Counted from the stretch's first letter, positions 1 to 61,094 are shown. The stretch is DNA of 64,000 nt from Candidatus Omnitrophota bacterium (GCA_963828495.1 CAWHFJ010000016.1:85353-149352); one strand, 5' to 3'. The notes: generated from the sequence alone by a model not told the origin. Program-made: numbers and translations.

Positions 1-1117
1 ATAAGCCCCGGGGTCGTCAGGGAACTCTTGGGTTATACCGGCATATGTCCCCCAGGCCGCATCATCATTTTTAAGTCCTTCCTGGGCTTGGGCCTTTAAA
101 AGCATCGCGGCAATCTTAATGTCACGATCAAGGCCCTTGGCTCCATTGGCCGCAGCCATCAGTTTGTCGAGGATCCCTAACGCCTCATCATTTTTATTCT
201 GCTTCAAGAACGCTTCAACAACGGATAAATGCAATCGAAAAAAAGCGGGATCTTGAAAATTGTCTTTAAATTGCTGATTATAAGAGACAATCAGCTTATC
301 TAACTGCTGGCTCTTTAAAAGGGAGGTAAACCAACGGGTCATGGCTTCCTTAAACACCGGCTTGGAAGGAAAATCAATGATGACCTGGTTAAATAACTTC
401 GCGGCCCCGGCATAGTCTTGCTGGTAAAAAAGCAACTGGGCCTGCTTCATCAGGATTTCCGCTTTGACATCGTCGCTATCGGCAAGACTGAATGCTTTTG
501 AGTATTTCTCCATGGCCTTGGCATAGTCCGCCAGGGTCGTCAAAACATTCCCCCACTGCAAATACGCTTGGGGAGTGTAGCCTCCGCTTGTCTGCACTTG
601 AGTGGCTTTTTCAAAATTAGCGACGGCCTGCCCAAAATTTTTCTGGGCCATAAAAACCTGTCCCAAATAAAAATACAAAGTCTGATAGAAAGGCGGCTCT
701 ACCATAGAGGCATCGACACTCGTCAGCTTGACTAAAGCCTCATCTTGTTTGCCTGTTAGATACAGGCATTGCCCCCACCTGAGGTAATCAAACCACTTTT
801 TTCTATCGTTAGGAAAACTTTTTGCGTATTGTTGATAAAAATCGATGGCCTTAGCATAACTTTTAAGAAAAAAATAACTATCACCGGCTCCCAGATAGGC
901 TTGCGGACAGAAAGGCGCTTTGAGGGTATTGCTGGATGAATTCCTCGAACTCGGATGCGGCCAGTTGATATTGTGATTTATTCAACAGCTGCTGGGCAAA
1001 ATCTATTTTTTCGCCCTCGTGAGTCAGCGCGGACTGGGCACGGGCCACGGGACAAAAAACTGTGCTTGTCACAAGCAGTGTCCCAAGCCCTATTCTTATG
1101 AAAAATGTGGATCTCAT
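1..1117 (-). pseudogene. TPR-repeat protein with N-terminal signal peptide, located downstream of ExbB/ExbD in a YbgF/CpoB-like position. The 3' end runs off the window. The frame is broken by an apparent 1-nt insertion near 904-915.
   Basis: ORF 881-1117 encodes a signal peptide (MRSTFFIRIGLGTLLVTSTVFCPVARA) followed by ...EEFIQQYPQSAF. The TPR helix continues one frame over as PQAYLGAGDSYFFLKSYAKAIDFYQQYAKSFP..., and that frame stays open from 903 to base 1 (own translation). Confidence 0.6.
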
Positions 1118-1533
1118 TCCCGATTTTCTGAAGTAGCAAAAGAAACATCCCTGATATTATTGCGGGCGCAAGCGTCTAACACCTGAATGACGTATTTATG
1201 AAAAGTCCTTTGGTCCGCACGGATAATCACGGATTGCTGTGGGGACAACGCGGTCAATTGATGCAACACGTTGTCCAACGCCGTTTCGCTCAAAATCCTG
1301 CCGTTAACAATAAATTGGCCCTTGACCGTGACATTGATGATAATCTGGGTGCCCGCGCCCCTCATATCATGGGCTGAGGTGGCCTGCGGAATATGGATGT
1401 CCATCTGCGCCTCAATGTTGTAGTACACGCTTAAAACCATAAAAAAAACAAGCGTAAAAAACAAGACGTCGATCAAAGGGATCATCTGGATCTGGGGGCG
1501 ATCATAAATATTTTTGGGGTCAAATCTGGACAT
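1114..1533 (-). CDS. ExbD/TolR family biopolymer transport protein
   Basis: 139 aa with a single N-terminal TM segment (IPLIDVLFFTLVFFMVL) and an ExbD/TolR-type periplasmic domain. It overlaps the downstream TPR gene by 4 nt and lies directly downstream of the ExbB-like gene. Confidence 0.85.
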   Translation of the reverse strand: MSRFDPKNIYDRPQIQMIPLIDVLFFTLVFFMVLSVYYNIEAQMDIHIPQATSAHDMRGAGTQIIINVTVKGQFIVNGRILSETALDNVLHQLTALSPQQSVIIRADQRTFHKYVIQVLDACARNNIRDVSFATSENRE

Positions 1534-1556
1534 AAAATACCTCGAGGTGTTAAACT

Positions 1557-4111: not shown

Positions 4112-5156
4112 TTATTTTAAAGAAGCCATGTCGATGACGAATCGATACCTCACCTGGGCTTTGAGGACCCGTTCATAAGCTTCGTTAACTTTCCCAATAG
4201 GTATTAATTCAATATCCGCGGTGATGTTATGCTTGCCGCAAAAGTCCAGCATCTCTTGGGTTTCTTTAATACCGCCGATCAAGGAACCGGCCAAACTGCG
4301 ACGCCCCATAATCAAAGAAAAGGCATGAAGTTGCGGCGCGTCGCTGGGAACTCCTAAAAGCACCATGGAGCCGTCGCGCTTGAGCAATCCCAAATACTGC
4401 CCCCAATCCAATTTCATGGATACGGTGTTAATGATCAAATCAAAATGACGGGCCAATTGCTCAAATGTCTGCGCGTCGCTGGTGGCATACACATGGTCGG
4501 CACCCAATCGCTTGGCATCTTCCTTCTTATCCAAAGTCCTGGTTAAAACCGTGACTTCTGCCTTCATGGCATGGGCGATCTTAACCGCCATGTGCCCTAA
4601 GCCTCCTAAACCGACGATGGCCACACGCTTGCCCGGACCCGCCTTCCAATGACGCAAAGGCGAATAGGTCGTAATCCCCGCGCACAACAGCGGCGCTGTA
4701 CGATCCAACGGAAGATTTTTGGGAATACGCAGAACAAAATCCTGGTCGACGACAATCTTGGCGGAATAACCCCCTTGAGCTAAAGTTTTCTTGTCCCCTT
4801 CAAGACTGTTGTAGGTAAAAACCGTCCTGCCGCAGAACTGTTCCAAACCTTCCTTACAATCCGGGCACTCGCGGCAAGAATCAACCATACAGCCAACGCC
4901 CACCTTGTCCCCAACCTTAAACCGCTTCACGCTTTTCCCCACAGCCGTGACAATGCCTGCGATTTCATGACCAGGGACCATCGGATAAAGGGAATTGCCC
5001 CATTCATTACGCACTTGATGGATATCGGAATGGCAGATACCGCAATAAGCGATGTCTATGGCTACATCACGCTGTCCCCACATCACGACGGGTAATTTGC
5101 AACGGCCCCAAAGGTTGGGCGGCATTTAAAACTCCATACGCTTTAATCTGTGGCAT
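4112..5156 (-). pseudogene. NADP-dependent Zn alcohol dehydrogenase (YahK/cinnamyl-alcohol dehydrogenase family), frameshifted as assembled
   Basis: [21 protein letters not shown] and VGLGGLGH motifs; collinear with E. coli YahK to the C-terminus (...RYRFVIDM). The true N-terminus [27 protein letters not shown] lies in another frame, starting at ATG 5156 with an AAGGAGGG RBS. Removing one C from the CCCC run at 5076-5079 joins the frames. Confidence 0.85.
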
Positions 5157-5183: not shown

Positions 5184-5580
5184 TTATGGGTGTCTCTTTT
5201 CCTTTAAATAGGCCATGGCTTGAAACTGGGCGAGAATGGCCCCATCTTGATTGGTCACTGTCCCTTGATAGGTGCCTAATTTCCGGCTGCGGGAAACTTC
5301 TCTGACTTCGCGCAAAAATCTCTTCTTTTACAACGGCCGGTTTAATAAAATGAATGTTGGCGCTAATGGCCAAACCTGATTCCTCCGGTGTATTTGACGC
5401 CAAGGCAAAGGCGTAATCGGCCAGAGAAAAAATCACCCCTCCATGGGCAAAATCCAAACCATTAAGAAAATCCTGCTGTATGGTCAATTTGGTCTTGGCA
5501 TAGCCTTTGGCAACCTCGACGATTTGCATCCCCAGATGCTTGGCAAATTTATCATTTAACACAATGTCCTCCTTACGCAC
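5184..5580 (-). pseudogene. PaaI/hotdog-fold thioesterase, frameshifted as assembled
   Basis: The N-terminal part (...FAHGGVIFSLADYAFALA...ISANIHFIKPA) is typical of PaaI. The family-like C-terminus REVREVSRSRKLGTYQGTVTNQDGAILAQFQAMAYLKEKRHP* is in the adjacent frame. The junction is at the AAAAA run 5314-5318. Confidence 0.75.
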
Positions 5581-5593
5581 TGCGGGTCCTTAG

Positions 5594-7343: not shown

Positions 7344-7832
7344 CGCTTGGCTCCCTCCTGACGGCCTTGAAAGAAATATTCTTTATTCTGTGCCTGTTCC
7401 CGTTTAAAAATATCATCCATAGCCTTGAATCCAGGATTCTTCTTTGATCTGTAAAAATGCGGAGACAACTCCCAGCATGTAGGTGTTTAAAAACATCTTC
7501 TGCTCGCCCACTGCTTGATGGGCACCCCTCAAATAAGAAAAAAGATCTGCCCCGCCTTTTTTAAGCTCGGATTGGAACCTCGCGTATTCACTTTCATACA
7601 AGCAAACCAAAATGTCCACTTGCCCTTCTTCAGGCAGAGGGGACAGGACACAAGCGCCAAACCGCACATAAGATTCTACAGAACCGCCGCGTTGGGCCAT
7701 GCCTTTGACTTCGGATTTCTTGACATGATAGCCGTCATGAAGCGCCGCTCTGGCGCACACTTCAGAGGCCGACAAGACGCCCTGGCCGCCTATCCCATAA
7801 AAAAGCACATTGGTGGTGTTTTTATTCTTCAT
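7340..7832 (-). pseudogene. iorB: Indolepyruvate:ferredoxin oxidoreductase subunit beta, frameshifted as assembled
   Basis: The N-terminus VLFYGIGGQGVLSASEV...MAQRGGSV is typical of IorB. The tail KAMDDIFKREQAQNKEYFFQGRQEGAKR* is in the adjacent frame, and its TGA overlaps the paaK ATG (ATGA). The junction is near 7421-7428. Confidence 0.8.
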
Positions 7833-7851: not shown

Positions 7852-7907
7852 TTGGACCGTTTCCACCGGGGCCTTAGGGCCCCATCAAGTTACAACAGAA
7901 CTGTCCC
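7852..7907 (+). repeat. Plus-oriented, more diverged copy of the ~57-nt intergenic repeat. It forms the left arm of a 133-bp inverted-repeat unit.
   Basis: TTGGACCGTTTCCACCGGGGCCTTAG (7852-7877) is the reverse complement of 7959-7984 with 1 mismatch in 26. The inner part ...TTACAACAGAACTGTCCC resembles the TTAYGAYGGAAGTGTCCCC end of the other copies. Confidence 0.8.
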
Positions 7908-7984: not shown

Positions 7985-9714
7985 AGGAAAGAGGCAAGAT
8001 GGCGTTGAGCTTGCATACCTTTGCACATAACTCACATCCAACGCACATCACCGGATCAATACTTAAATTGCCGTCTTTATCTTCCAAGATCGCCGGACAG
8101 TCTAGTTTCAGACACAAACCGCATTTTTTGCAAGCCCCCATGTCTATTTTAAATGGGGGTTTGCGTGAACGGTCGACAATTTTACAAGGATGCCGGGCAA
8201 TGATCACTGATAATTTATCTTCCTCCACCCTCGTCTTCAATAAGTTTCTCAAAACCCTCCATATCATAAGGATCAATAACATCGACACGATCAACATTGG
8301 CGGCTTTACATAAATCTTCTAAGGAAAGCTTCTTGGCCACCTTGCCCTGCAGGGTCACACCCGTCGTAGGATTGACCTGGGCACCGGTCATCGCCGTAAT
8401 GGCATTATCCATGATCACCACGACCCCTTTGGTATTGTTATAGGCGGCAGAAATAAGACCGCTTAAGCCCGTATGAATAAAAGTCGAATCTCCAATGACA
8501 GCAATGACCTTTTGATCCAAGGCCGTCTTACTGATCCCTTCAAAAAACGGCACGCTGGCCCCCATGCAAATTTGCGTATGTAAAGACGCCAGCGGCTCTA
8601 AGGCCCCCAGCGTATAGCAGCCGATATCCCCGGCGACGAAAAATCTGCATTTTTTCAACGTATGAAAAGCCGGCCGATGGGGACACCCCGGACAAAGCAA
8701 CGGCCGTCGGGCCTTCTGGGGACGATCATCCCGGTCACGGCCGGCCACAATGCGCTTGACGGCGTGCACACTTAACTCGCCACAGCGCCAAGAAGGTTTC
8801 TTGGCCGTCACCTTTATCCCTTCCTGCTTTAACTGCTCTTCTAAAAACGGCTCTAATTCTTCAATCACATAAAGCTTTTTGACTTTTTTCGCAAAGGCCT
8901 TGATTTTCTTAATCGGTAACGGAAACGACATACCCAGTGTCAGAATGGAGGCTTTAGGATAAGCTTCCCGGGTATAAAGAGCAGACACGCCGCTGACAAT
9001 AAATCCCATCTTCCGGTCTTTGATCTCTGCGCGATTTAATGCCGTATGCTCTGCATATGCCTTTAATCTCAACAGCCGCTTTTCCAAATCCACATGACGA
9101 AGACGGGCATGACCCGGAATCATCACGTACTTGGGAGGATTACTCTCCAAAGAACGCGTTGGCACGTCACGAGTAAGGTCAATTTCAAAAGATTCTTTAG
9201 TGTGAGAAATTCTGGTGGTGATGCGAAATAGCACGGGAATATCAAACTCTTCAGAGATGCGGTAGGCTTCTGCTATATAACGATAGGCCTCGAGAGGAGA
9301 AGAAGGCTCGATTAATGGGACCTTGGCATAAGGCGCTACCCTTCTGGTATCTTGTTCATTTTGTGATGAATACATACCCGGGTCATCCGCTACCACAACC
9401 AAAAACCCGGCATTGACTCCGCTATAGGCGGTGGTCATCAGCGGATCCATGGCCACGTTTAACCCTACGTGCTTAAAAGCTGTTAACGCTCTTTTACCGC
9501 CCAGACAAGCCCCGAAAGCCGCTTCATAGGCCACTTTTTCATTAACGGCCCACTGAGCTTCCAGGCCATCAAAAGTCCCCAGGGTTTCAAGAATTTCAGT
9601 GGAAGGTGTTCCGGGATATCCGGAAGCAAAACAAACACCAGCCACCTTCGCCCCCCAGGCAACAGCCTCATTCCCAGATAAGAATACAGTTTTCTTTTGA
9701 GTTGAATCAGACAT
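7959..9714 (-). pseudogene. iorA: Indolepyruvate:ferredoxin oxidoreductase subunit alpha (TPP- and 2x[4Fe-4S]-binding), frameshifted as assembled
   Basis: ORF 8215-9714 carries the pyrimidine-binding and TPP domains (GDIGCYTLG, GDSTFIHTG). ORF 7959-8297 carries the ferredoxin domain (CKKCGLCLKLDCP...CVGCELCAKVC). Removing one C from the CCC run at 8228-8230 gives ...EKLIEDEVEEDKLSVIIARHPC. The last 8 codons and the TAG stop lie inside repeat copy A1. Confidence 0.85.
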
Positions 9715-9779
9715 AGTAGACTCAATAATAAAAGCGTTATTATAGCCTCTTTATCGGAAAATGACAACTAACAAGAATA

Positions 9780-10472
9780 TCACCTAGGAATGGCTTCGAG
9801 TTTATCGGAAGATTTGATAGTGAGCGCAAAAATATCGGAAAAAGGCAGATCGCTCAGCCAGCTATCCATGACCAAAATATCTTTGAGGGCCTGCGTCGGC
9901 CTGGGATTAATAAACCACATATGATACATGTTGCAGTCCGGGCGCATCGGATTGCGACCGCTGGATTTTATATTGGCCCCGTCTTTAGACCATGCGATCG
10001 AAGGCAGATAAAACCAATCCCAAAACACGGGTACTGACAAGGATTTATAAACACCGTCCTGATACACAAACATGACCGTTATGGTGGAATAAAAATACTT
10101 GTCTCCAAAAAAATGCAGCAAAGAATCGTGCGTGTAACTATTGCTATAACTGCCCGATGCCAAGAAATGCACTTGGTCTACTCTCATGCCGGAACGTATG
10201 GGGATCTTGAACAAATGACCGTCTTGCAAATTCAGCCTGCCATAATCCTGCCAATTGTCCGCCCCTTGCACTAAAAAATCGACCCCGTCGTAGGTCAAAT
10301 ATTTGCCGGGGAACTTATTAGCGCCGGGCGCAATCGCGCTAAAATTCTCTCTGGTATTTTTAGCCAGAAAATAATAATTCCCCTGGGATTCCCACTGCGG
10401 GATGGCGCCCCAGGCAACCCCTAAGCTCAAAAAAATCATGACGAGCCAACAAAGTACTTTTTTTGTAATCAT
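9780..10472 (-). CDS. Hypothetical exported protein
   Basis: The likely start is ATG 10472 (MITKKVLCWLVMIFLSLGVAWGA, a signal peptide); the longer ORF to 10628 overlaps the kinase gene. I recognise no motif. Confidence 0.5.
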   Translation of the reverse strand: MITKKVLCWLVMIFLSLGVAWGAIPQWESQGNYYFLAKNTRENFSAIAPGANKFPGKYLTYDGVDFLVQGADNWQDYGRLNLQDGHLFKIPIRSGMRVDQVHFLASGSYSNSYTHDSLLHFFGDKYFYSTITVMFVYQDGVYKSLSVPVFWDWFYLPSIAWSKDGANIKSSGRNPMRPDCNMYHMWFINPRPTQALKDILVMDSWLSDLPFSDIFALTIKSSDKLEAIPR

Positions 10473-10536
10473 GCGGGAATTATAGGCCAGAATATCAACA
10501 AAAGCAACGGGAAGGTTGGCTCTTTTAAAAATAATC

Positions 10537-15906: not shown

Positions 15907-16267
15907 CTATATAAATTTTGAAAAAATCTTCTCTATATCCAATATAACCATCGACTTCCCATCCGCCGGGACCTTAACCACATCAAACCTGTCCACCACA
16001 AACCCAAAAACTCTTTTTCTTAATTCAATAAAAATGATCCGGGCGGTTTTGGGCATTTCTGCCATAGGCGTACAACAAAACTGCCCGGTCCCAATTGACC
16101 ACGACAATAACTTGGCCTCGTAAATTGACCACCCCTCTAATAAAACCCTCAGGATCATTGATCACCGTCATATCCATCACTCCGGTGATCTCACGGATAT
16201 AGGCGATTTCAACCCCAAACTCTTCCTCATGCAGGCGAAAAATCACCACCTCAATGGCCTGAGTCAT
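15907..16267 (-). pseudogene. cheW: CheW-like coupling protein (short), frameshifted as assembled
   Basis: VVIFRLHEEEFGVEIAYIREI...GVVNLRGQVIVVVN in one frame, then ...TARIIFIELRKRVFGFVVDRFDVVKV...ILDIEKIF in the next. The junction is near 16086-16096. Its ATG overlaps the MCP stop (ATGA). Confidence 0.75.
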
Positions 16268-17391: not shown

Positions 17392-17424
17392 TGATCTTAA
17401 ATGTACCCGGCATCAATCATAAGA

Positions 17425-43048: not shown

Positions 43049-43103
43049 TAGTATTTTCACAAAGCCTCCTTTTGCAGAGATGAGCTTTCCCTTACCATTA
43101 AAT

Positions 43104-43147: not shown

Positions 43148-43244
43148 CTTTAACTTTTAGGCTCATTTTGGGCACCAAGGATGATGCGGTCTTGGAATGA
43201 TTCTGTAACTTATTCTAGAGCAATAAGTTGTGAAGCATAAAAAA

Positions 43245-43336: not shown

Positions 43337-43350
43337 GTACCAAAATCTTA

Positions 43351-43461
43351 CTATTTCAAATACATCCAGAATGCGGAGAGGTGTTGTGCAAACTTCCTCA
43401 ATTCAACAATCCAGAAAAGTTTGCCCACCTCTCTAACCTTCTATATCAAATATATCCAGAA
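43351..43461 (-). repeat. Three phased (~45-bp period) copies of a ~20-nt box upstream of tRNA-Ser, interleaved with fragments that resemble the tRNA 5' end
   Basis: Boxes: CTATTTCAAATACATCCAGAA (43351), CTCAATTCAACAATCCAGAA (43397) and CTATATCAAATATATCCAGAA (43441). CCCACCTCTCTA occurs at 43424 and 43484; compare CCACCTCTCC, the tRNA 5' end, at 43327-43336. An inverted GGAGAGGTG lies at 43375. Confidence 0.7.
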
Positions 43462-43512
43462 AATCGACCCACCTTCACTAGCGCCCACCTCTCTACCATT
43501 TTTTCAATTATA

Positions 43513-45144: not shown

Positions 45145-45287
45145 GAAGGCGGATTATAGCATAACGACCCATAAACGCCAATTGTAAAATAAGGAGACGT
45201 CCCTATTTTTCCTTTTCTTGCATATTTGCTCAAATAGTGTTAGTCTTACAAATTGAAGTTTAAAAATAACACCTTATCAGAAAGTCC

Positions 45288-46490: not shown

Positions 46491-46492
46491 TA

Positions 46493-49753: not shown

Positions 49754-49756
49754 ATA

Positions 49757-49815
49757 GGGGGACACTTCCGTCATAAGTCCTTATTTTCCTAGGGCCCAAT
49801 TGGAAACGGTCCAAG
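49757..49815 (-). repeat. Intergenic repeat copy B. It overlaps the menD stop and ends 3 nt before the helicase ATG.
   Basis: Minus strand: CTTGGACCGTTTCCAATTGGGCCCTAGGAAAATAAGGACTTATGACGGAAGTGTCCCCC. Confidence 0.85.
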
Positions 49816-51546
49816 ATAAAATGATTTAGGGCTTGGTGCACCTTGTGAATTTTCTGCCCTGCCGGTTATGACTTCAATGATCGTGGACGTTTGTGACTTA
49901 ACCGCCCTTGTATACACTTCTTTAAAATGCTTAACCGTCATCGGCTGATGATAGTTTAGCTCAAAGGCCGCCGCCGTGTTGGCAAAAGTAAAAGAATGCG
50001 GCACCCCGAAGAACTTTTCAAACCCTTCTTTAAATTCAGCGATAGGTAAAAAAGAAAATATGCCCGCCCCCCCGTTATTGAGGACCACGATAATTAAAGG
50101 ACAAGGCAAATCGCGTAACATCCCTAAAGAATTTAAATCATGCAAAGCCGCTAAATCACCGACCATCAGCGTCACGGGTTTTTCCAGTCCTCTCGAAAAT
50201 CCTGCGGCCGAAGCCACCAGCCCGTCGATACCACTGGCCCCGCGATTACCGTTGACAATAACCTCATGCCCCTTGAAATCCGCGTAAGAATCCATATCGC
50301 GGATGGGCATACTATTGGCCAAAAATAATCCCTGATGCCGAGGGACCAACTGGGACACCAAACGGGCAATGCCGGGCTCGCATAAATACTCCTCACTTTT
50401 AAAAAAATTTTCAATGGCCCTGTCAGCCGTCCCGTTGGCTTTGGACAATAATTTTTGCGCACCGGAAGGCTTACGCGATTTGATACGCCCGATGACACTC
50501 TTAATAAAATGGGTGACACTACTTTCTATACGCAAGGTGACCTGATGATTAGGGTCATTGCGCAAAGAATGGTTAAGTACCATGATATATTCTGCAGGAT
50601 TTTGTGCCTGAATAAATTCATAATAACGTTTAGAGGTGATGCGCCCGCCTAAATGAAGCACGCCATCAAATGACAATCGTCGGGAAATTTTATCGGATGA
50701 AAGCAGCTGATCAAAATAAGAAATGAGATTAGGGTGCCTCACCCCCAGCCGTAAGCCTGAGGCAATGTCCGCAAAAACCGGCCAGCCTGTTTTATCCGCC
50801 AAACGCAGTACCATTTGCCGCTCCTGGCCCCTCTCGATTTTACCGACGACAATCACGCCGTTTTTAATTTTCTCCAGACGCTCAACAACGCCCTGGGGAT
50901 GCGCCAAGCCCGCGGACTTAAAACCCGTAACATAACGCGTATAAGGCTCTGGGGATTTGACCCAGCGGTTGAGAGATTTTGTATAGCTTGCCAGGTCATC
51001 CCGGCCTTCAAGTAATGTCAACGGTGGACGAAACATGCAATTGATGTGCACTACCCCACGGTTGCGTGTGGCCTGATACCAGGCCTGGTCCATCGTAGTC
51101 AAAACAAACTGAGGGTTGATATGGGTGTCGGGACAAGGCATGTCGGTTGTCCACTCGGTGTATTTGCCGAAAATACCCACCTGATCAATGGTCTGTGCCG
51201 CCCCTGTCTGCCTTAATTCCGGCGGACGGTCAGCGGTTAAAACGATCAACGGGAGTTTTTTCTTGGAAGCTTCAATCACGGCCGGGAAAAAATTAGCCGC
51301 GGCCGTGCCGGACGTGCAAATGAGGACCGCCGGCTTTTCGGTTGCGGCAGCATAGCCCATGGCATGAAAGCTCAGTCCACGCTCATCGAAATGCACAAAA
51401 CTTTTGGCATTTTTATTCTGAGCCACGGCAATGACCAGAGGCGAACTGCGCGAGCCCGGCGCCACACAAAAATAATCCGCTCCCAGACGCGTTAGCTCCT
51501 CAACCATCAAACCGGCCCAACAGTGATTAATATTGACGAAAGTCAT
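49789..51546 (-). CDS. menD: SEPHCHC synthase MenD (TPP-dependent)
   Basis: N-terminus WAGLMVEELTRLGADYFCVAPGSRSSPL..., TSGTAAANFFPAVIEA, and the TPP motif GDLAALHDLNSL...NNGGAGIF. The last 8 codons (LGPFPIGP*) lie inside repeat copy B. Confidence 0.9.
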   Translation of the reverse strand: MTFVNINHCWAGLMVEELTRLGADYFCVAPGSRSSPLVIAVAQNKNAKSFVHFDERGLSFHAMGYAAATEKPAVLICTSGTAAANFFPAVIEASKKKLPLIVLTADRPPELRQTGAAQTIDQVGIFGKYTEWTTDMPCPDTHINPQFVLTTMDQAWYQATRNRGVVHINCMFRPPLTLLEGRDDLASYTKSLNRWVKSPEPYTRYVTGFKSAGLAHPQGVVERLEKIKNGVIVVGKIERGQERQMVLRLADKTGWPVFADIASGLRLGVRHPNLISYFDQLLSSDKISRRLSFDGVLHLGGRITSKRYYEFIQAQNPAEYIMVLNHSLRNDPNHQVTLRIESSVTHFIKSVIGRIKSRKPSGAQKLLSKANGTADRAIENFFKSEEYLCEPGIARLVSQLVPRHQGLFLANSMPIRDMDSYADFKGHEVIVNGNRGASGIDGLVASAAGFSRGLEKPVTLMVGDLAALHDLNSLGMLRDLPCPLIIVVLNNGGAGIFSFLPIAEFKEGFEKFFGVPHSFTFANTAAAFELNYHQPMTVKHFKEVYTRAVKSQTSTIIEVITGRAENSQGAPSPKSFYLGPFPIGP

Positions 51547-52857: not shown

Positions 52858-53537
52858 AAATAGTGGCGGCCCCTCCCATGAGGGGATGAGGCTGGATATT
52901 CAATAAATCCCATCTGCTTTAGAATTTTACAAAAGCGATCCCCATAAGGAAAAGTCTGTATGGTCCGGGTTAAATAACGGTAAGCTCTGAAATTCCCGGA
53001 TAATAAAAATCCGACTATCGGCACAACTATCTGTAAATAAAGCCAATGCCCTGCTTTAAGCACAGGATTATCGGGCTTGGAAAATTCCAAAATCAACACT
53101 CTACCTCCCTTTTTGGTGACCCGGTACATTTCCAGAAGTGCCAGGCGCAAATCCGGGATATTCCGGATACCAAAAGCAATACTGACGCAATCAAAGGTTT
53201 CATTGTGAAAAGACAAAGCCTGCACATCGCCGTGGCGCAACATGAGCCGGTCATCCAAATGCCAGGCCATGATTTTCTTTTGCCCGATTTCCAGCATTTT
53301 AACGGCCATGTCCACTCCAAAGGCGCGATGGATTTTAGGATTATTCCAGGTTAAGGCAATCAAAACATCGGCGGTACCGGTGGCTAAATCCAAAATAATT
53401 TGCCCGTCAGAATCAGGCAAAAATTGCTTTAAGGCCTTGCGCCAGCGCACGTCCTGCCCCAGCGACAGCAAACGGTTTAAAAAATCATACCGTCCGGCAA
53501 TGTCATCGAACATTTTCCAGTTCTTTTCATTATCCAT
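52841..53537 (-). pseudogene. ubiE: Demethylmenaquinone/ubiquinone methyltransferase UbiE/MenG, frameshifted as assembled
   Basis: FDDIAGRYDFLNRLLSLGQDVRWRK, ILDLATGTADV, FGIRNIPD and the GGRVLILEF motif. The family-like tail ...EYPASSLMGGAATIYVAQK* appears if the GGGG run at 52882-52885 loses one base. Confidence 0.88.
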
Positions 53538-53591
53538 AATGAGTCCGGGTACGTTAATAGATAGTCTATTATCCGTTCCTATGCTGATTTG

Positions 53592-56500
53592 TCAACCTTC
53601 GGATGAGGCCGTATTTTTCAGATCGGCGAAAATCGGTAGGCTGGCGGCAGGTTTGATATCAATAATAATAGGCACTAAACCATCAATATTAATATGTTCT
53701 AAATCCTGTTGGCTGATGGGCAACGGCACCCCATGACCATCACGTTTGATCTGCAAATTCAAATTAGCCGCGTTGAAGTCGATACCACCAGGACTACTGG
53801 CTTGCATCGCTGTGTCCTTAGGCAATATTCTATTAACTTCACCTATTAATGCCGAAAGCCCATATGGCTTTTTAAGAAAAGCGTCGATGGGGACATTGGC
53901 TTTTTCCCAATCTTCCCGAGAATCTGCTCCGCTTACAGCAATAATGCGAATCCCCCTATTACTCAGTTTACTCAGAACCTCTTTAACAGGCCCAATCCAA
54001 TCGGTTGTATCAGTGACTAATAAGGACACTTCCTCCCCATGGCTTTCCATAACTTGCTTAAGTTCAGCCGGACTTGCCGCAGTTAAAACAGTAAAACCCT
54101 GTGGTTCTAGCACCAATTTTAGCACCTCCGCATTCAAAAGAAGAACTCCCGAATCATCATCTGCAACAACAACAGTCCTCTTGCCTGTAGTCATCATCGC
54201 CTCATTTCTAGTGTTCAAGAGTTTCACCACAGGTGTGATCAATCTTTTAAAATCTTCGGGGTCAAGACCATTTCTTGAAGCAATTCTGTCGACTAAACCC
54301 CATCTCTCATCCCGATCCATGGCTTTGAGCTCAGCCTCATTCATCGCTTTCATCACTTTTAAAGTTAGAATCAGTTCCCTTAATGCAGCCTTTTGATTTG
54401 AAGATAGCCTGCCTTCATTCCTATCTAAATAATCCTGATATAATCTACTGGCGTCCGGAGTTCTTCCAGTTGATCCTTGAGACAATGCCGCCGGTCGGTA
54501 TCCAGTAGTATGGCGTGGCTCTGCATCTTTTGCCCTCCTATATTCACTTTTTATTTTCATAAAAATAGCCTCGGCACTGTGAGAGACCCTCTCATCCTTA
54601 ATATATAAATTCTGGCCTACTCTTGGTCTTGGTCCTATATTGTCTAACATAACCGCTATTTCTCCTGCTACTTCTTGAATATAAGGTTTAATCAGCGGGT
54701 CATCTAACATCTGTTGAATAATCTCGCTTAATGACAATAAACCATTAACATTATGAATCGCTTCCCAATAAGCATTAAAATCAGGCCTACCGATCATCGC
54801 CTCATCTTCCTCATTAGAAGAGATGATGACTCTTCCCTCACCAGGGCCATCGGGCATGTAATTGGGATTCCCTTCGGCAGCTACGGGTTCTATATTGAGT
54901 GTCCCCTTCGCATTGACTTCTGGAGCCAAAACCGCCGAAAGAGCTTTGATTTCTTCAGGATTTAATGGGCGTATCTTGTTATAAAAGACATATCCCACAC
55001 TTTGAAAAGGAAGATAGCGGTCTATTTGATCTATAAAATCAAAAATGATATCAATGCCAGAAGACAGGTTACTCCACTCCTTAAAAAGACCTGTACTTAC
55101 CCCGACCATTTTAATTAATTTGGTGTCTATGCCCGCCTTTTCTAACTTTTTAAATATTTCTTGTAAAACATTCCCTTGCCTACAATCAAGATCCAAGATA
55201 ACAAAAGGACGATCAACCGTTGGCTTAAACTTCTGATACGCATTCTTTATTTCATCTATTAAATCAATCCCTAACCTTTTATTGAGCGAATCCAAAGAAA
55301 ATGGAGAACTGGGTAGATAACTAGGGCTCATTGAATACCTTACCAGACCATAAGATTCATGTCTTTCTAAACCCTCTCCTTCTTTGGCGCCATATGAATA
55401 TGCCTGCGCATTTGGGATCCAGCTTTGAGTCAACAACCTCCATTTAGGGAACTTCAAAACTCTTATTGCAGCTCTATTAAGTTCATAACTATGCGTCCTG
55501 TCTTTTACTTCAATGGGATCAATTAATGATGGCTCTTTTCCATTTAGCCAAACATATTGCTCTTCTGCATTAATATTGATCTTAACGAGATTCCCCTGCC
55601 AAGAAGCAAACCTTTTACCCAATGGTTTTAAGAAAAACAACGGATCCATCATCCTACCTTCGGACACACTTAATTCAACTCTTAATGAAGGGCTATACCA
55701 TGCTTCTAAAAAAAGATGGCTATAATCATTGCCAAACTTTTGCTTAACTTTAGGATTAACATGAGCAGGTTTAGGCAATTGAATATATTTTGTTTTCCCC
55801 CATTTCATGACATTCCCTATTGACTCACCTTCAGCCACCTCTACAGGGTGCTCTGGAAAGATCTCCAACTTCGAGTAAAATCCGATTCTACTATTTTTCG
55901 CAAACTTTTTGGGAAGGGAATCAATATCCCTATAATGCCATAAAATCCCTTCCTTAGTTAAAATATAAACTTCCACACTGCCAGACATCCCCTGCCTATA
56001 CTCTTCAGAAACCATATAATATAATTTCCCGCCTTGTACAGCTTTGACCGGAGTCCCCGCAGGCACCTGGATTGCTATCCCCCCTTCCTCACGAAACGGC
56101 CCCTTATCCTTATGATAAAGAGCCATATGAAAAGGCATGGTGGTATCAATAGGCCAACTCACAGTATCAGCAAGTTTACGTAGATTAAAAGGCAGATGGC
56201 CTTCGTCATTCCCCGGATTGCGAGCTGTCCCATCCAGCCCTGTCGGATAATTTAACTCACGCGCATATTCTTCCGGATCGATAAGGCCTATATCCGAAGG
56301 GATTGATGCCACTGTACGGTCAACATTTTCGGTTAAAGCTCTGGTGATGGCTCCCTTCCTGTTATCGGGCTCTTGAATATCCACTCGAACGTCTTTTATA
56401 TGCTTAGCCTGCATCGCCGCATCAACAATCATAGCTGAGCTAGGTGGATTTTCCGCAGTCCGTACATCAAGCACTTGAGGCAATTCATTTTCAAAACCAC

Positions 56501-57533
56501 CCGAAAAATATTTCCTTGGAATAGCTTCATGGGTGTATCTATCCATATCTTCCTTGATATAATTAAACACACCCTTTTTAAATGCCTTCAGATAACGCTG
56601 GTAAATTTCTTCATTGGTTTTGGGGTCCTGATCAACACCTTTGACCTTAGACTTATCCGCATAAATCTTCCCTAAAAGAGATTCCTTCAAAGCTCTTTTA
56701 TACCAGGTCGCAAGAATCATCCCGCTGTACATTTGCCGCAAGTTGGCAAAATTCTTGCCTTCATTAACTTCTTTTTCTAATTCAGGAAGAATGATGGCAC
56801 GGATAACCTGGGAGCCGATGGAGTGCGTGGCATTGGAAGAAGCCCCGGCACTAACACCGTTGTGCTTTTCTAACGACAAATAATCCTCTTCTAACATCAC
56901 CTTTAAATGGCTTTTGAGAATATAAACGCTATTGCCACTTTCATAGACAATAGCTTGATTGGGCACAACCCACACCTTGTTAAAAGTATTCACCGGTATA
57001 TCGGTCGTGTGATATTGAGTCCAGGCACGCTCGTAGACCTTGTCCCAAAATTTCTTACCCAACCCATCTTCCGGATAAATCAAACTGGAAGTGATTTGTT
57101 TGAGCATATAATCTTGAGCCAAAAGATCCCTGCCCATTTCGGTTTTGCCCAAATCATCCTTGATAATACGATCTTTTTCATAAGGCGAAAGGTTAACCCA
57201 TTGGTCTTCATCAGGAATTGTTAAAGAGGCCAAAAAATATTTAATCAGCTTGGCATACTCTTCTTCTGTCCGGCTTATAGACAAATCTTGATCCCCTTCA
57301 TGAATTAAAAAGTCGAATTGCATGGCATTATCATGATGAATAATCAGACCCACCAAATGAGCTGGAGTAAACTCCGGGCTTAAATGAACCATGACCCCAG
57401 GGGCCGGCAAACCCAACACGACTATTTCCCCTGCCTGGACTTTAGGAATAGGTAAAGAAGAACCTATAAAAGCAATGATCAACGCAATGCTTATGGTTTT
57501 ATGGAGATATTTAAATAAATTTTTAGGGTTCAT
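53592..57533 (-). CDS. 1313-aa multidomain protein: N-terminal hydrophobic anchor, large unassigned region, LytM/M23-like degenerate segment, Rossmann/methyltransferase-like segment, canonical receiver domain, and a conserved-looking C-terminal GGIDFN...NIDGLVPIII motif
   Basis: Intact ORF. The receiver domain is at ~53825-54182 (VVVADDDSG...LLVTDTTDW...IAVSG...LKKPY). GIAIQVPAGTPVKAVQGGKL resembles the M23 GxDIxAxxGTPVxA block. RPFVILDLDCRQGNVL resembles SAM-methyltransferase motif I. Confidence 0.6.
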   Translation of the reverse strand: MNPKNLFKYLHKTISIALIIAFIGSSLPIPKVQAGEIVVLGLPAPGVMVHLSPEFTPAHLVGLIIHHDNAMQFDFLIHEGDQDLSISRTEEEYAKLIKYFLASLTIPDEDQWVNLSPYEKDRIIKDDLGKTEMGRDLLAQDYMLKQITSSLIYPEDGLGKKFWDKVYERAWTQYHTTDIPVNTFNKVWVVPNQAIVYESGNSVYILKSHLKVMLEEDYLSLEKHNGVSAGASSNATHSIGSQVIRAIILPELEKEVNEGKNFANLRQMYSGMILATWYKRALKESLLGKIYADKSKVKGVDQDPKTNEEIYQRYLKAFKKGVFNYIKEDMDRYTHEAIPRKYFSGGFENELPQVLDVRTAENPPSSAMIVDAAMQAKHIKDVRVDIQEPDNRKGAITRALTENVDRTVASIPSDIGLIDPEEYARELNYPTGLDGTARNPGNDEGHLPFNLRKLADTVSWPIDTTMPFHMALYHKDKGPFREEGGIAIQVPAGTPVKAVQGGKLYYMVSEEYRQGMSGSVEVYILTKEGILWHYRDIDSLPKKFAKNSRIGFYSKLEIFPEHPVEVAEGESIGNVMKWGKTKYIQLPKPAHVNPKVKQKFGNDYSHLFLEAWYSPSLRVELSVSEGRMMDPLFFLKPLGKRFASWQGNLVKININAEEQYVWLNGKEPSLIDPIEVKDRTHSYELNRAAIRVLKFPKWRLLTQSWIPNAQAYSYGAKEGEGLERHESYGLVRYSMSPSYLPSSPFSLDSLNKRLGIDLIDEIKNAYQKFKPTVDRPFVILDLDCRQGNVLQEIFKKLEKAGIDTKLIKMVGVSTGLFKEWSNLSSGIDIIFDFIDQIDRYLPFQSVGYVFYNKIRPLNPEEIKALSAVLAPEVNAKGTLNIEPVAAEGNPNYMPDGPGEGRVIISSNEEDEAMIGRPDFNAYWEAIHNVNGLLSLSEIIQQMLDDPLIKPYIQEVAGEIAVMLDNIGPRPRVGQNLYIKDERVSHSAEAIFMKIKSEYRRAKDAEPRHTTGYRPAALSQGSTGRTPDASRLYQDYLDRNEGRLSSNQKAALRELILTLKVMKAMNEAELKAMDRDERWGLVDRIASRNGLDPEDFKRLITPVVKLLNTRNEAMMTTGKRTVVVADDDSGVLLLNAEVLKLVLEPQGFTVLTAASPAELKQVMESHGEEVSLLVTDTTDWIGPVKEVLSKLSNRGIRIIAVSGADSREDWEKANVPIDAFLKKPYGLSALIGEVNRILPKDTAMQASSPGGIDFNAANLNLQIKRDGHGVPLPISQQDLEHINIDGLVPIIIDIKPAASLPIFADLKNTASSEG

Positions 57534-57600
57534 GAGGATTATCTTCTCCTTTATCCACCTACTTATAAGTAAAACATATAAATATTAAGAAAACAAGGGG

Positions 57601-58656
57601 TTACAGCGGCTTTGGGGAAAACGTTTTCTTGACGCGGGATGATAAAAAATCTTCTATAAATTTCTTGGTGCCCTGCAATAATCCGCCGACATAACCGGCT
57701 TCAAGCCTGGGATCATAGTCTACCAAAAATTTACGGGCCACTAACACAGAATTCTTAAAACCAACAGCTTGGAAAGCCGGATAGTCATTACCTTCTTTGG
57801 AGCCATCATCTCCGATATAAACCATGTCCAAACCATGTCGGCCGGATGTATCTGAAGCTAAATCCAATGCCTGCTCACGATAACCGGGCACAGAAAGAGC
57901 CTTACCCTTAGCATCCACGAAAACTAATTCCGCCCCGCCGTTGGCTGCCACCAAAATCCTGCAAAAAACATCTTGAGGCAAGGCATCGACAAGACGTTTA
58001 AAAGAACGCTCCAGATCATTGCCGGAAACCAGCATAAATATGCCCCCGGCACGCAAATACGCGCACAGCGCCTCACGCACCGGACTTTCAGCCAAAGTCG
58101 GCAAAATCCCAAGCCGAGGGCCATCGTAAATCGTGTCATCCCCATCAGCGGCAATGACTGTCTTAGTTTGACGCGCGTCTATATGAGGTCCCGGCTGATA
58201 ATTCATGACTTTTAGCACATCATCAAAAGCCCCCTGCAAAAAACGAATAGGCACGGACTTATCCACCCCTTGCACATTAAACTCTATGGAAGATGTGCCT
58301 GCCAATTTTAAATGTATACCAACCCCGAGCTGTTGGCATTTTTGAGTAATCTCTGCCATAGCCTGGACGCGTTTGGGACCCCAAATACCTTTGGCCACCA
58401 TTTGCGCCGCCCCTTGTGAGGTTTTACCACGCACCTCTATACGTACCGAATGATTGATAGCTTGGGACCAATCCGATCCCCAGACCACTAATTGATCGTC
58501 GGAAAAATCGGCAGGATTAGCCTGAAAAGCAGCAATAGCCCCGCGGGCCTCCCCTTTAAACTGACCGGCATCGGCACGAGACAAAAAATCCCGGATGGCC
58601 TCACCGCTTAGGTGGATGATGATTTTTAGATGATTAGAGTTTATTAGAGTTAACAT
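57601..58656 (-). CDS. HAD-superfamily-like hydrolase, translationally coupled to trpF
   Basis: DGDDT (DxDxT-like), LVSGN and YIGDDGSKEGND blocks resemble HAD motifs I, II and IV. The ATG at 58656 overlaps the trpF TGA (TGATG). The order of motifs is atypical, so the assignment is tentative. Confidence 0.5.
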   Translation of the reverse strand: MLTLINSNHLKIIIHLSGEAIRDFLSRADAGQFKGEARGAIAAFQANPADFSDDQLVVWGSDWSQAINHSVRIEVRGKTSQGAAQMVAKGIWGPKRVQAMAEITQKCQQLGVGIHLKLAGTSSIEFNVQGVDKSVPIRFLQGAFDDVLKVMNYQPGPHIDARQTKTVIAADGDDTIYDGPRLGILPTLAESPVREALCAYLRAGGIFMLVSGNDLERSFKRLVDALPQDVFCRILVAANGGAELVFVDAKGKALSVPGYREQALDLASDTSGRHGLDMVYIGDDGSKEGNDYPAFQAVGFKNSVLVARKFLVDYDPRLEAGYVGGLLQGTKKFIEDFLSSRVKKTFSPKPL

Positions 58657-59309
58657 CAAATATGCTCTTTGACCTTGGCACCGCTGATGTAGCTGACGAT
58701 ATCGACAAAATCTTTCATTTTCTTGTGGTCTTTTTTCCCCACAGATTCTTCAACCCCGCTATTGACATCCACGGCATAGGGTTTTAATTCGTTGACCGGC
58801 TCAATCACATTTTGTGCATTTAATCCGCCGGATAAAATAAACGGGACATCATAGGATGATTTGACCTGTTTTAAGATATTCCAGTCAAAAGTCTTTCCAC
58901 TGCCGCCGTAATTGGTCGGCTCAAAGGTATCAAATAAAAAAGCATCCACTTTGAAAGGCTCGACAATTTGGGGGTCAAAATTCTCACCCACACGAAAGAC
59001 CTTGATGACTTTAACATTGTAACTTTTCAGCCTATGGCAAAAATGATGGTCTTCATCCCCGTGCAGTTGGACTGCGCGCAGACCGCAGTGATTGATAATG
59101 TCCCTGACCGCCCCCGCAGGGTGGTTGACAAAGACACCGACGGGCGTCACAAAGGGCGGCAGGCTTTCAATGATTTTCTTGGCCTTAAACGGAGAAATAA
59201 ACCGCGGGCTTTTTTTATAAAAAATAAATCCTAAGGCCCATGCGCCTATGCGGGCCGCTTTTAAGGCATCAATGTCGTTGGTGATACCACAAATTTTAAC
59301 GCGTACCAT
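58656..59309 (-). CDS. trpF: Phosphoribosylanthranilate isomerase TrpF
   Basis: VKICGITN...A...GA.ALGFIFY..SPR.I......I...LP..V..VGVF.N......LHGDE; 217 aa. Confidence 0.88.
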   Translation of the reverse strand: MVRVKICGITNDIDALKAARIGAWALGFIFYKKSPRFISPFKAKKIIESLPPFVTPVGVFVNHPAGAVRDIINHCGLRAVQLHGDEDHHFCHRLKSYNVKVIKVFRVGENFDPQIVEPFKVDAFLFDTFEPTNYGGSGKTFDWNILKQVKSSYDVPFILSGGLNAQNVIEPVNELKPYAVDVNSGVEESVGKKDHKKMKDFVDIVSYISGAKVKEHI

Positions 59310-60087
59310 ACATCACTTCCTTTATTTTTGCGCCGATATCCATAGAGCGCATGAAAACTTCTCCCATGAACACGGCATGGGCCCCTGCCTCTTGTACTCT
59401 TTGCACATCCTCATGTGTTTTAAGACCGCTTTCCGCCACAATAATAATCCCCTTGGGGATGCGCGGGATGAGGCCCAAACAATTATTTAAATCGACCTTA
59501 AGCGTTTGCAGATTGCGGTTATTGACCCCTATGATTTTGGCCCCGGCTAAAACAGCACGATCGATTTCTGCTTGATTGTGCACTTCTACCAGAGAGTCCA
59601 GCCCCAAGGTGTGTGCCACCCCCATTAATTGGCGCAACTGACTTTGTCGTAACATGCTCACAATCAAAAGCACCGCCGATGCTCCGTAAAAAAGCCCTTC
59701 ATAAATCTGATATTCATGCACAATAAAATCTTTCATCAAGACCGGGACTTGGCAATTCTCGCTGACCTGTTTTAAATAAGCCAATTTTCCTAAAAAATAT
59801 TTATCTTCGGTCACCACCGAAATGGCCGCGGCATTATTTTTCAGATAAACCTTAGCGATTTTTGCCGCGTTAAAATCTTCACGGATCAACCCGGCGGAGG
59901 GCGACGCTTTTTTGATCTCGGCGATTAAATTGATCCCCCCGGGTTTAGATATGGCTTTTTTGAAAACTTCATAACGCCGTTGGGATGAGGGCTTCATGTT
60001 CTTTTTCAAATTCTCATAATACGCCTTTTTAGCAGCCAGTTGCTCCAACTTATATCGGGCTATAGTTTTTAAAAAATCACCGGACAC
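59296..60087 (-). CDS. trpC: Indole-3-glycerol-phosphate synthase TrpC
   Basis: IAEIKKASPSAG, AISVVTEDKYF.G, PVLMKDFI...YQIYE, VEVH, IIGVNNRNL and VAESG motifs; 263 aa. Confidence 0.9.
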   Translation of the reverse strand: MSGDFLKTIARYKLEQLAAKKAYYENLKKNMKPSSQRRYEVFKKAISKPGGINLIAEIKKASPSAGLIREDFNAAKIAKVYLKNNAAAISVVTEDKYFLGKLAYLKQVSENCQVPVLMKDFIVHEYQIYEGLFYGASAVLLIVSMLRQSQLRQLMGVAHTLGLDSLVEVHNQAEIDRAVLAGAKIIGVNNRNLQTLKVDLNNCLGLIPRIPKGIIIVAESGLKTHEDVQRVQEAGAHAVFMGEVFMRSMDIGAKIKEVMYGTR

Positions 60088-61094
60088 GGTTAGTAAACTC
60101 CTTTAATTCTTCCAGTTTGTGCAAGGCCCGTTTGGAATCAATGGCATGCTCTGCCATACGCATACCCTGCTTTAAAGTATCCACCACCCGGGTCATATAA
60201 AGCGCATACGCGGCATTGACGATGACGATATCGCGCTTAGGCCCCCTCTCGCCTTTTAGAATTTTGTGTACAATGGCGGCATTCTCTAAGGCGTTGCCGC
60301 CTGCCAAATCCTCTATACGCGCACGGGCTATACCCAATTCATCAGGATCGATATCATAGCTGATAATGTCCAGCCCGTTAAATTCGCTGACAAAAGTTTT
60401 ATCCGTGATGGTAATTTCATCCAAGCCGTCATTGCCATGCACCACCAAAGCGCGTTTGAGCCCTAAATTTTTCAACACCTGGGCCATGGGTTCGACTAAT
60501 TCACGGCTGTATACCCCCATGATCTGGTGGGTGGCCCGCGCCGGGTTAGTCAATGGCCCTAATATATTAAAAATAGTTTTGACCCCCAGCTCCTGGCGGG
60601 CGCCGGCGACATTTTTCATGGCCGGATGCAAACGCTGGGCAAATAAAAAAGCCAAGCCAATGGTGTCCAAAGATTCGCTTAAATACTTTTCTTCCATATT
60701 CACATTGAATGCCCAACGCTTCCAACACATCCGCGCTGCCGCAGAGGCTGGAAACACGGCGGTTGCCGTGTTTGGCCACCACCACCCCGCAGGCCGCGAC
60801 AACAATGGCCGTTACCGTCGATATATTAAAAGTATTTTTATGGTCCCCACCGGTACCGACGACATCCAGAATAACTTCGTGACGGGTTTTAACCGGTATC
60901 ACAAATTTGCGCATGATCAAGGCAGAGGCGGTGATCTCCTCGATCGTCGGCCCTTTTTTATTGAGCTGTGAGAGAAAATCCTTAATATCCTCTAAAGGCA
61001 CTTGGCCCGACATAATCAGCTCCATGACAACAGTGATTTCGTCCGGCTCAAGGTTCTCTCCCTGCCGTATTTGTTTAATATAATCGCGCATCAT
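60077..61094 (-). pseudogene. trpD: Anthranilate phosphoribosyltransferase TrpD, frameshifted as assembled
   Basis: VVGTGGDHKNTFNISTVTAIVVAACGVVVAKHGNR..SS..GSADVLEALGI then, one frame over, NVNMEEKYLSESLDTIGLAFLFAQRLHPAMKNV...GPLTNPA. The junction is near 60705-60710. Confidence 0.88.

Follow-up and report, generated by a model that had tools for sequence, protein, structure and literature searches.

Homopolymer errors are classically associated with nanopore, 454 or Ion Torrent sequencing. Indels that split genes can be quantified with the IDEEL test, and correctors of frameshifts such as proovframe are aimed at them. Real gene decay is marked by nonsense mutations, deletions of varied sizes, IS insertions, a deletion bias, lesions shared within a lineage and relaxed selection. 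Long-read consensus sequences are known to contain frameshifts, and gene-splitting indels have been described in them (PMC9262707; bioRxiv 10.1101/2021.08.23.457338); collapsed-strain consensus sequences are addressed by Strainberry (PMC8302730) and Strainy (bioRxiv 10.1101/2023.01.31.526521). Here, we analysed a 64,000-nt stretch (the window) of an Omnitrophota metagenome contig from an uncultured bacterium, whose frameshifts are almost certainly consensus errors of its assembly rather than mutations of the bacterium itself.

The window was compared with 29 contigs from 11 public samples, recovered by exact-protein look-ups and 98–100% identical over most of their length. The species is described as a free-living, motile Omnitrophota. 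Indels were placed to the single base by nucleotide alignment against these conspecific contigs, protein-level tests consisted of family profiles across ORF pieces and tblastn with orthologues from related contigs, and repairs were made in silico by deleting or adding bases and comparing the resulting ORF lengths with those called in other contigs. Logan k-mer assemblies from seven runs served as a proxy for raw reads. Comparator depth per site ranged from a single contig to 5/5 contigs from five samples: sites 12117, 13877, 16094 and 16270 have one comparator each, a 'contig_N' assembly (L125), and sites 8244, 48799, 49508 and 49847 have one conspecific 'contig_N' comparator and one more distant relative. 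The relative L097 is 9% diverged from the window. The comparators themselves carry errors, including private 1-nt deletions (26055 and 29071), one in each of two Logan contigs.

In total, 23 frame-breaking loci were found in 20 genes. The original prediction had listed at least 21 frameshifts in 18 genes; all 21 exist, and two further breaks lie at the C-termini of an MCP gene (16270) and of MenD (49847). As had been proposed, the protein sequence switches frame at each site: tblastn with related-contig orthologues changes frame at each, and family profiles run on from one ORF piece to the next for CheA, CheW, PurU, PIF1 helicase, MenF, UbiE, TrpD and YidB, while IorA profile positions 3–513 lie in one piece and 511–595 in the next. 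Base repair joined the pieces of each gene into one ORF as long as its counterpart in other contigs, with the exception of YidB, which needs AA changed to G. The predicted positions were accurate to within about 20 nt, although the nearest homopolymer had often been blamed wrongly.

At 906, a TPR/YbgF-like gene carries an extra G (GCG[G]ACA, added base in brackets) that is missing from three Logan contigs of three runs. The 749-aa gene is intact in Logan contig L122, which has 1 mismatch in 3488 nt around the site, and L124 aligns over 1393 nt with 0 mismatches besides the gap. The Zn alcohol dehydrogenase gene (347 aa intact in L125) has an extra T near its N-terminus at 5073 (CGC[T]GTC), absent from L125 and L126, and not in the CCCC run at 5076–5079 to which the adh break had been assigned; the NCBIfam Ahr match in the window begins only at profile position 27. 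Alignment to conspecific contigs together with tblastn placed an extra C in the PaaI-type thioesterase gene at 5309 (CTT[C]GCG) rather than in the A5 run at 5314–5318; the 125-aa protein is intact in L125 and L126, and the PaaI profile match in the window ends at 82/114. An ACT-domain gene (143 aa intact) has an extra G at 5862 (AAA[G]CAT) that is lacking in L125, L126 and L017; here, the C of the others corresponds to G in the relative L018. The extra T of iorB at 7426 (CCT[T]GAA) is absent from L125, L126 and Logan contig L127, with the tblastn frame change falling within 7425–7456. For iorA (584 aa intact in L125), profile, tblastn and contig alignment located an extra G at 8244 (TAA[G]TTT), away from the CCC at 8228–8230 that had been held responsible.

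Further sites were placed against L125. The dCache sensor histidine kinase gene (598 aa intact in L125, the sole comparator) has an extra C at 12117 (TCT[C]TGA) and becomes a single 608-codon ORF after repair. Profile and L125 alignment identified an extra C in cheA at 13877 (CGT[C]AAT; 654 aa intact in L125) and an extra A in cheW at 16094 (CCA[A]TTG; 120 aa intact in L125). Also in cheW, with L125 as the sole comparator, two nearby deletions at 15987–15991 (A5 to A3, plus one A) together remove 3 nt, keeping the frame and changing QVF to RF; these are probably paired errors, their attribution being uncertain. An extra C at 16270 (TAA[C]TGT) affects the last codons of the MCP gene (last 6 residues), whose product terminates in ...LVKQL in the window and in ...LVKHYDSGH in the unbroken form.

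The type II secretion/pilus genes and regulators that follow, at 16271–32862, contain no window-private indel. No gap was found against L115 or L116 in 20884–27557, these contigs having 0–1 mismatches per 2 kb relative to the window from ~22 kb on, and each other gap in 16271–32862 is private to one other contig. Three stretches had been predicted to be free of breaks, and indeed no private indel occurs in 16271–32862, 39975–48798 or 52902–60704. Placement is non-uniform, as had also been suggested: the largest gap is 16.6 kb, and when as many sites were placed uniformly in simulation, 1.6% of the placements had a largest gap of at least this length (P ≈ 0.016).

The next break is an extra A in opgH (622 aa intact elsewhere) at 32863 (TTG[A]CCG), which four contigs from three samples lack; tblastn changes frame within 32853–32863. 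In opgG (526 aa when intact in conspecific contigs), a break that had been ascribed to the T5 run at 34395–34399 is an extra base at 34379 in the C-terminal region, where the window reads CC[TG]AAA and conspecifics read CCTAAA (L104 and L105) or CCGAAA (contig_26192); both alleles are present within the species. The missing base reported at 34729–34733 resolves into two insertions, A at 34718 and C at 34728, whose net +2 is read as −1 by frame arithmetic; the A at 34718 is common to the long-read contig L105. Likewise, the extra base reported at 35616–35620 is really two missing bases, a 2-nt homopolymer contraction to C5 from the C7 of L104, L105 and L107. Between purU and opgG, an intergenic A5 run at 35957–35961 is A6 in five contigs, and purU itself (283 aa intact elsewhere) has an extra A at 36617 (GAT[A]GGG) that is absent from five contigs of four samples. 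The ATGA overlaps that repair had been said to restore, at iorB/paaK and opgG/opgH, are present in intact conspecific contigs.

At 39304–39310, an A7 run in the window, A8 in five conspecific contigs from five samples, breaks a 130-aa protein with two tandem repeats and a faint Ada Zn-binding match. Contig L108, with 1 mismatch in 3038 nt around 39310, has A8. Runs of the A7 type allow transcriptional slippage in some endosymbionts, and with programmed ribosomal frameshifting or transcriptional slippage the genes would be expressed normally. As an account of the window, this is scarcely credible: the conspecific A8 is in frame, no common slippery motif was found across the 23 sites, and 0 of the sites are conserved in conspecific or related genomes, each of these genes being one uninterrupted ORF there. 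The yidB break (137 aa intact elsewhere), placed by the original prediction at 39955–39963, is a complex change at 39973–39974, AA in the window versus G in other contigs; the frame is shifted, and deleting one A alone leaves a TAA stop.

In the PIF1-helicase/DUF3857 fusion gene (1086 aa intact in L097), an extra base lies at 48799–48800, where the window reads TGA[TC]GA, contig_26192 TGACGA and L097 TGATGA. A second break with one base missing had been correctly called in this gene at ~49493–49503, and contig alignments moved it to a missing C at 49508 (CTGT-TCAGG). An extra G at 49847 (TGT[G]AAT), lacking in contig_26192 and L097, disrupts the last ~19 codons of menD, which after repair ends ...YKVHQALNHFILDRFQ, as in L097. 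The menF gene (437 aa intact elsewhere) has an extra C at 52355 (GGA[C]GTT) that is missing from Logan contig L112 and from L111, and ubiE/menG (231 aa intact elsewhere) has an extra C at 52901 (ATT[C]AAT), absent from L112, L111 and L097, and not in the G4 run at 52882–52885 as supposed. Finally, trpD (338 aa intact elsewhere) has a complex change at 60705–60706, where the window reads CACATTGAAT, conspecifics CACCTGAAT and the relative L097 CACATTAAT. Against L099 (99.56% identity), 11,008 nt align with this site as the sole gap, and the change is also missing from Logan contigs L100 and L112.

The earlier tally of 18 extra and 3 missing bases reflected frame arithmetic rather than actual events, which comprise 21 single-base insertions and 6 deletion events; the insertion bias itself was confirmed (binomial P = 0.006). 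All indels in the window are 1–2 nt. Inserted bases fall outside any run in 15 of 21 cases and in a run longer than 3 in none, and four of the six deletion events are contractions of A5–A8 or C7 runs.

All broken genes are intact in the conspecific contigs covering them, which derive from other public runs and assemblies. At multiply covered frame-breaking sites, the window's indel is found in 0 contigs (2/2 to 5/5 agreement), except for 34718 in L105. Moreover, sibling 'contig_N' assemblies (contig_26192, contig_66036, which is L105, and contig_95299, which is L114) have private frameshifts in genes that are intact in the window. Broken genes include those for DEAD helicase, ABC-F, MenD, the helicase fusion and OpgG in contig_26192 (insertions:deletions ~17:3) and for PurU and OpgG in L105 (~8:1), and the six private indels of L114 divide evenly into three insertions and three deletions. 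The intact conspecific genes and the differing private frameshifts of the siblings uphold the original prediction's preference for a consensus or sequencing artefact. Because conspecific public contigs are named in the Flye style ('contig_N') and have errors of the same type, the window was probably built from error-prone long reads.

Were the frameshifts real, they would define a sub-lineage with ~23 recent disabling indels, in early decay or with an insertion-biased mutator, which we consider very unlikely. In the segments that hold most of the sites, the window haplotype differs by SNPs from the comparators, which include no independent copy of exactly that haplotype there; the insertion at 34718 is common to L105, and host dependence is reported for some Omnitrophota (PMC10066038). 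However, the indels at 906 and 39310 are missing from virtually identical haplotypes in three to five runs, and the sets of private frameshifts differ in other assemblies of the species. No lesion common to closely related genomes was found, save 34718 with L105. Among ~500 substitutions, no independent nonsense codon was found, the sole in-gene nonsense belonging to the complex yidB event, and neither large deletions nor IS insertions were found in the window. Substitutions relative to the three main conspecific contigs are 51–63% synonymous compared to ~25% expected for random changes, a measure that very recent lesions could escape. Biosynthetic genes are struck inside otherwise intact operons (trpD, menD, menF, ubiE and purU), and in comparison with L097, the window-private sites are the only uncompensated coding indels with a length not a multiple of 3. 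To our knowledge, +1 insertions outside repeats are atypical of the bacterial mutation spectrum. A real sub-population in which +1 insertions struck ~20 housekeeping, biosynthetic and chemotaxis genes in a burst, as a mutator lineage at the onset of decay, is highly improbable; it would need the private frameshifts of the sibling assemblies to represent parallel decaying sub-lineages.

The consensus errors are associated with strain variation. Along the window, stretches identical to other conspecific contigs are interspersed with stretches 0.5–2.7% different, with almost all errors in the latter, and 24 of 25 indel loci are in 1-kb bins that also hold SNPs versus the nearest conspecific contig. 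A SNP lies within 250 nt of the indel in 96% of cases compared to 53% expected (P < 1e-4). The patchy distribution, previously taken to leave room for decay, is explained by this placement, as the indels sit in segments where the consensus departs from the nearest conspecific contig, that is, strain-variable stretches. At 6 of the 9 sites with an outgroup match judged orthologous, the inserted base equals the relative's allele of the adjacent position, for which P ≈ 3e-4 under a chance rate that was estimated rather than computed. Such allele-blending directly fits ~7 of the 21 insertions, the remainder being without informative polymorphism.

An artefact could also arise without strain mixing, through random read errors and homopolymer miscalls in low-coverage or poorly polished stretches, the SNP link being incidental. 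This origin is possible but unlikely. It accommodates the four deletions that are typical homopolymer contractions, the site at 906 within a segment identical to three other contigs, the informative second allele at so few insertions and the lack of SNP enrichment within ±3–10 nt of the indels. It sits poorly with loci that track SNP-bearing segments, with the match to the relative's adjacent allele, far above the estimated chance rate, and with segment SNPs that are mostly synonymous and therefore reflect real strain divergence, not noise.

Two classes of error are present: the contractions of A5–A8 and C7 runs, which make up 4/6 deletion events, and the 21 single-base insertions outside homopolymers, nearly all of which lie in stretches that vary among co-existing strains. 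For the second class, we propose that in a two-haplotype read pile-up a SNP may be represented by an insertion together with a deletion. A polisher that retained the insertion, not the deletion, would leave both alleles side by side and shift the frame by +1. In the resulting annotation, gene callers split or truncate 20 whole genes.

Taken at face value, the window would imply lost tryptophan synthesis (trpD), menaquinone synthesis (menD, menF and ubiE), formyl-THF hydrolysis (purU), periplasmic glucan synthesis (opgGH), aromatic 2-oxoacid metabolism (iorAB) and chemotaxis (cheA and cheW). These apparent losses could be mistaken for support of host dependence in Omnitrophota, whereas the comparison finds the genes whole in the species. 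About one-third of the contig's genes are called wrongly. Metabolism should be inferred only after frameshift-aware correction or strain-aware re-polishing, and a split gene in a metagenome-assembled genome (MAG) of this kind should not be taken for a pseudogene.

Compared to known systems, the window resembles long-read (Nanopore or PacBio CLR) consensus sequences in its ~40 single-base indels per 100 kb, in genes cut into adjacent ORFs that jointly match full-length orthologues, in indels private to each assembly and in the share of homopolymer contractions among its deletions (4/6). Unlike the homopolymer indels emphasised in the long-read literature, its errors are mostly insertions outside homopolymers; unlike typical long-read errors, these cluster in strain-variable segments, and several resemble tandem SNP alleles. 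As in pseudogene-rich reductive genomes (Mycobacterium leprae and recently host-restricted symbionts), many conserved genes are frameshifted while the flanks look functional, but none of the mixed-lesion, shared, deletion-biased or relaxed-selection marks of M. leprae-type decay was found in the window. The alternation of identical and variable stretches, with errors in the latter, is that of a collapsed-strain (chimeric haplotype) metagenome consensus. From our allele comparisons, we infer that +1 insertions at SNP positions could be an outcome of such collapse, and insertions that mark strain-variable segments, with alleles side by side, may be a mark by which consensus errors from collapsed strains can be recognised.

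Almost all genes of the window lie on the minus strand, at a GC content of ~45%, and the nearest public relatives of its OpgH, MenD and PaaK were Candidatus Omnitrophota MAGs. A tRNA gene at 43248–43336 (−) was the sole Rfam match in the window. An OpgH genome scan returned relatives with only 70–82% amino-acid identity and synteny confined to opgGH; these confirmed the frame switches and were too distant for placing indels at base level. Exact-protein look-ups with PrmC, an 83-aa protein, a 1313-aa protein, a 121-aa response regulator, ExbD and one PaaK cluster member yielded 29 conspecific contigs from 11 public samples, which matched the window at 98–100% identity along most of each contig and jointly spanned all of the window. 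Seven runs (ERR10755936, ERR11523654, ERR11523656, ERR11523660, ERR11571142, ERR11630400 and ERR11748453) were represented by Logan k-mer assemblies, and the contigs of three ENA assemblies (ERZ25039466, ERZ25039472 and ERZ25039473) bear names in the Flye style, 'contig_N'. MenD, TrpF, two CheY-like proteins and PaaK gave zero matches as exact-protein queries, in the case of MenD because of its own C-terminal frameshift. The 1313-aa protein, encoded at 53592–57533 (−) between ubiE and a 351-aa gene, had no Pfam hit on record and was identical in conspecific contigs; it is missing at the syntenic locus of L097, a relative ~91% identical to the window, which points to a loss or a recent insertion.

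The frameshifts predicted from the sequence are present in the window, as family profiles, tblastn and nucleotide alignments to relatives concurred. IorA matched profile positions 3–513 in one ORF piece and 511–595 in the next, the PaaI match ended at 82/114, the Ahr match began at 27, and the profiles of CheA, CheW, PurU, PIF1 helicase, MenF, UbiE, TrpD and YidB likewise continued across adjacent ORF pieces. With ORFs of related contigs as tblastn queries, a frame switch appeared at every site. In nucleotide alignments to relatives at 78–91% identity (L097 and three others, L017–L019), each site had a single 1-nt gap lacking a compensating partner, all other coding-region gaps being multiples of three or compensated pairs. 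The breaks listed in the original prediction held, and two had been overlooked, at 16270 (MCP C-terminus) and 49847 (MenD C-terminus), which brings the count to 20 genes with 23 frame-breaking loci. The direction of change was revised at two sites: 34729–34733, read as one missing base, comprises two insertions, and 35616–35620, read as one extra base, is a 2-nt deletion. Several breaks had been blamed on a nearby homopolymer, with the altered base lying 3–20 nt off.

At base level, 21 single-base insertions are private to the window (906, 5073, 5309, 5862, 7426, 8244, 12117, 13877, 16094, 16270, 32863, 34379, 34718, 34728, 36617, 39973, 48799, 49847, 52355, 52901 and 60706), as are six deletion events, namely −2 at 15987, −1 at 15991, −2 at 35620 (C7 to C5), −1 at 35961 (A6 to A5, intergenic), −1 at 39310 (A8 to A7) and −1 at 49508. 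Fifteen of the 21 inserted bases fell outside any run and none in a run of more than three, and no shared motif, such as a methylation site, was seen by eye at the insertion sites. An indel pair at 33617/33621 in opgH was dropped from the list as misaligned synonymous codon changes, the protein being identical to that of all relatives. The paaI–ACT intergenic spacer contains three extra bases at 5579–5592 compared with two conspecific contigs; its length also varies among related species, and the difference is probably natural variation.

Every gene broken in the window was a single intact gene call in conspecific contigs: TrpD (338 aa), UbiE (231), MenF (437), PurU (283), OpgG (526), OpgH (622), YidB (137), a two-repeat protein (130, correctly labelled a tandem-repeat protein in the original prediction), TPR (749), CheA (654), CheW (120), the kinase (598), IorA (584), ACT (143), PaaI (125) and ADH (347). 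Editing the indel positions in the window gave single ORFs of the expected lengths, with YidB requiring AA to G, and the repaired termini of CheW, MenD and MCP agreed with relatives. Programmed recoding, under which the frame switches would belong to normal expression of these genes, is extremely improbable. At 46496–49780 (−), a PIF1-type helicase, DUF3857 and a transglutaminase-like domain form one ORF of about 1086–1095 aa; because this fusion is intact in L097 (1086 aa), it is a genuine architecture, not a frameshift by-product. A repeated element of ~60–70 nt (TTGGACCGTTTCC...GGAAGTGTCCCC) was also noted in three copies at gene ends or in intergenic positions (49755–49822 (−), 63772–63840 (−) and 7854–7877 (+)), two of them at the same places in L097 (1692–1760 and 11722–11790). 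It has a predicted 10-bp stem around a 30-nt loop, with no covariation in that stem and no Rfam match.

At frame-breaking sites covered by several contigs, the window's indel was found in none of them, except that at 34718, which is also in L105 (ERZ25039472 contig_66036). Some comparators were of practically the same haplotype as the window: beyond the extra G at 906, L124 had 0 mismatches in 1393 nt; L122 had 1 in 3488 nt; L108 had 1 in 3038 nt beyond A7 versus A8; and in L099 the trpD site was the sole gap in 11,008 nt. Sites 12117, 13877, 16094 and 16270 were compared with a single contig, a 'contig_N', and sites 8244, 48799, 49508 and 49847 with one 'contig_N' and one more distant relative. 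In SNP-rich segments the comparators represent haplotypes other than exactly that of the window, and the comparison was one of assembled contigs.

Among about 500 substitutions there was no independent nonsense mutation; the sole in-gene nonsense change is a component of the complex yidB event, and a candidate at 7385 was rejected, as it sits 5' of the start codon of paaK. Of the substitutions relative to conspecific contigs, 51–63% were synonymous across the three main comparisons; they reflect real strain divergence under purifying selection. That the frameshifts are real, recent lesions in the organism is very unlikely.

The sibling 'contig_N' assemblies bear frameshifts of their own. Private frameshifts were found in contig_26192 (DEAD helicase, ABC-F, MenD, the helicase fusion and OpgG) and in L105 (PurU and OpgG), both sets falling in genes intact in the window. 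By our count, insertions outnumbered deletions about 17:3 in contig_26192 and 8:1 in L105, and L114 (contig_95299) had three private insertions and three private deletions. What these three contigs have in common is production method, not biology. Elsewhere, single bases that the window shares with 5–7 other contigs are missing from two Logan contigs, one each from L117 and L118 (window 26055 and 29071), which breaks a secretin gene in the first and a histidine-kinase gene in the second; either k-mer assemblies contain errors too or rare real variants exist. L105 also gave a second, inverted match at 8126–11661 to window 30717–33259 (93.8% identity, 35 gaps); a foldback or chimeric assembly of very poor consensus quality is the probable cause. 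We conclude that the window's frameshifts are almost certainly an assembly artefact, because the indels are missing from the species' other runs and assemblies, sibling assemblies show private frameshifts, the inserted bases lie mostly outside runs, unlike natural slippage indels, and the substitutions include no independent nonsense change and are 51–63% synonymous in the main comparisons.

The stretches originally described as free of breaks were borne out by the conspecific contigs. The widest gap between indel loci was 16.6 kb, reached in 1.6% of simulated uniform placements. Across the window, stretches in which each 2 kb differs from other contigs by 0–1 mismatches (about 22–32, 40–44, 54–58 and 62–64 kb) alternate with stretches 0.5–2.7% divergent, a mosaic that could come from a strain-chimeric consensus or from recombination among co-existing strains. 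Indel loci followed the mismatches: 24 of 25 fell in mismatch-containing 1-kb bins, and 96% had a mismatch within 250 nt compared to 53% expected (P < 1e-4). Spearman rho was 0.37 (P = 0.003). A mirror image was seen in contig_26192, whose private insertions are concentrated at 44–49 kb, a region in which the window is clean and contig_26192 diverges from it most.

At six of the nine sites with an outgroup match judged orthologous, the inserted base equals the relative's allele at the adjacent position (roughly P ≈ 3e-4, given a chance rate of ~0.1 per site that is our estimate, not computed). At 34379, the species has both CCTAAA and CCGAAA, and the window reads CCTGAAA. The likely reading of this pattern is that, where co-assembled strains differ by a SNP, both alleles were written in tandem. 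SNP enrichment was absent within ±3–10 nt of the indels, as expected if the window holds both alleles, and emerged at ±50–500 nt. The window's homopolymer contractions are ordinary long-read errors; such contractions are an error class in long-read data (PMC9262707), and another study deals with correcting frameshifts in data of this kind (bioRxiv 10.1101/2021.08.23.457338).
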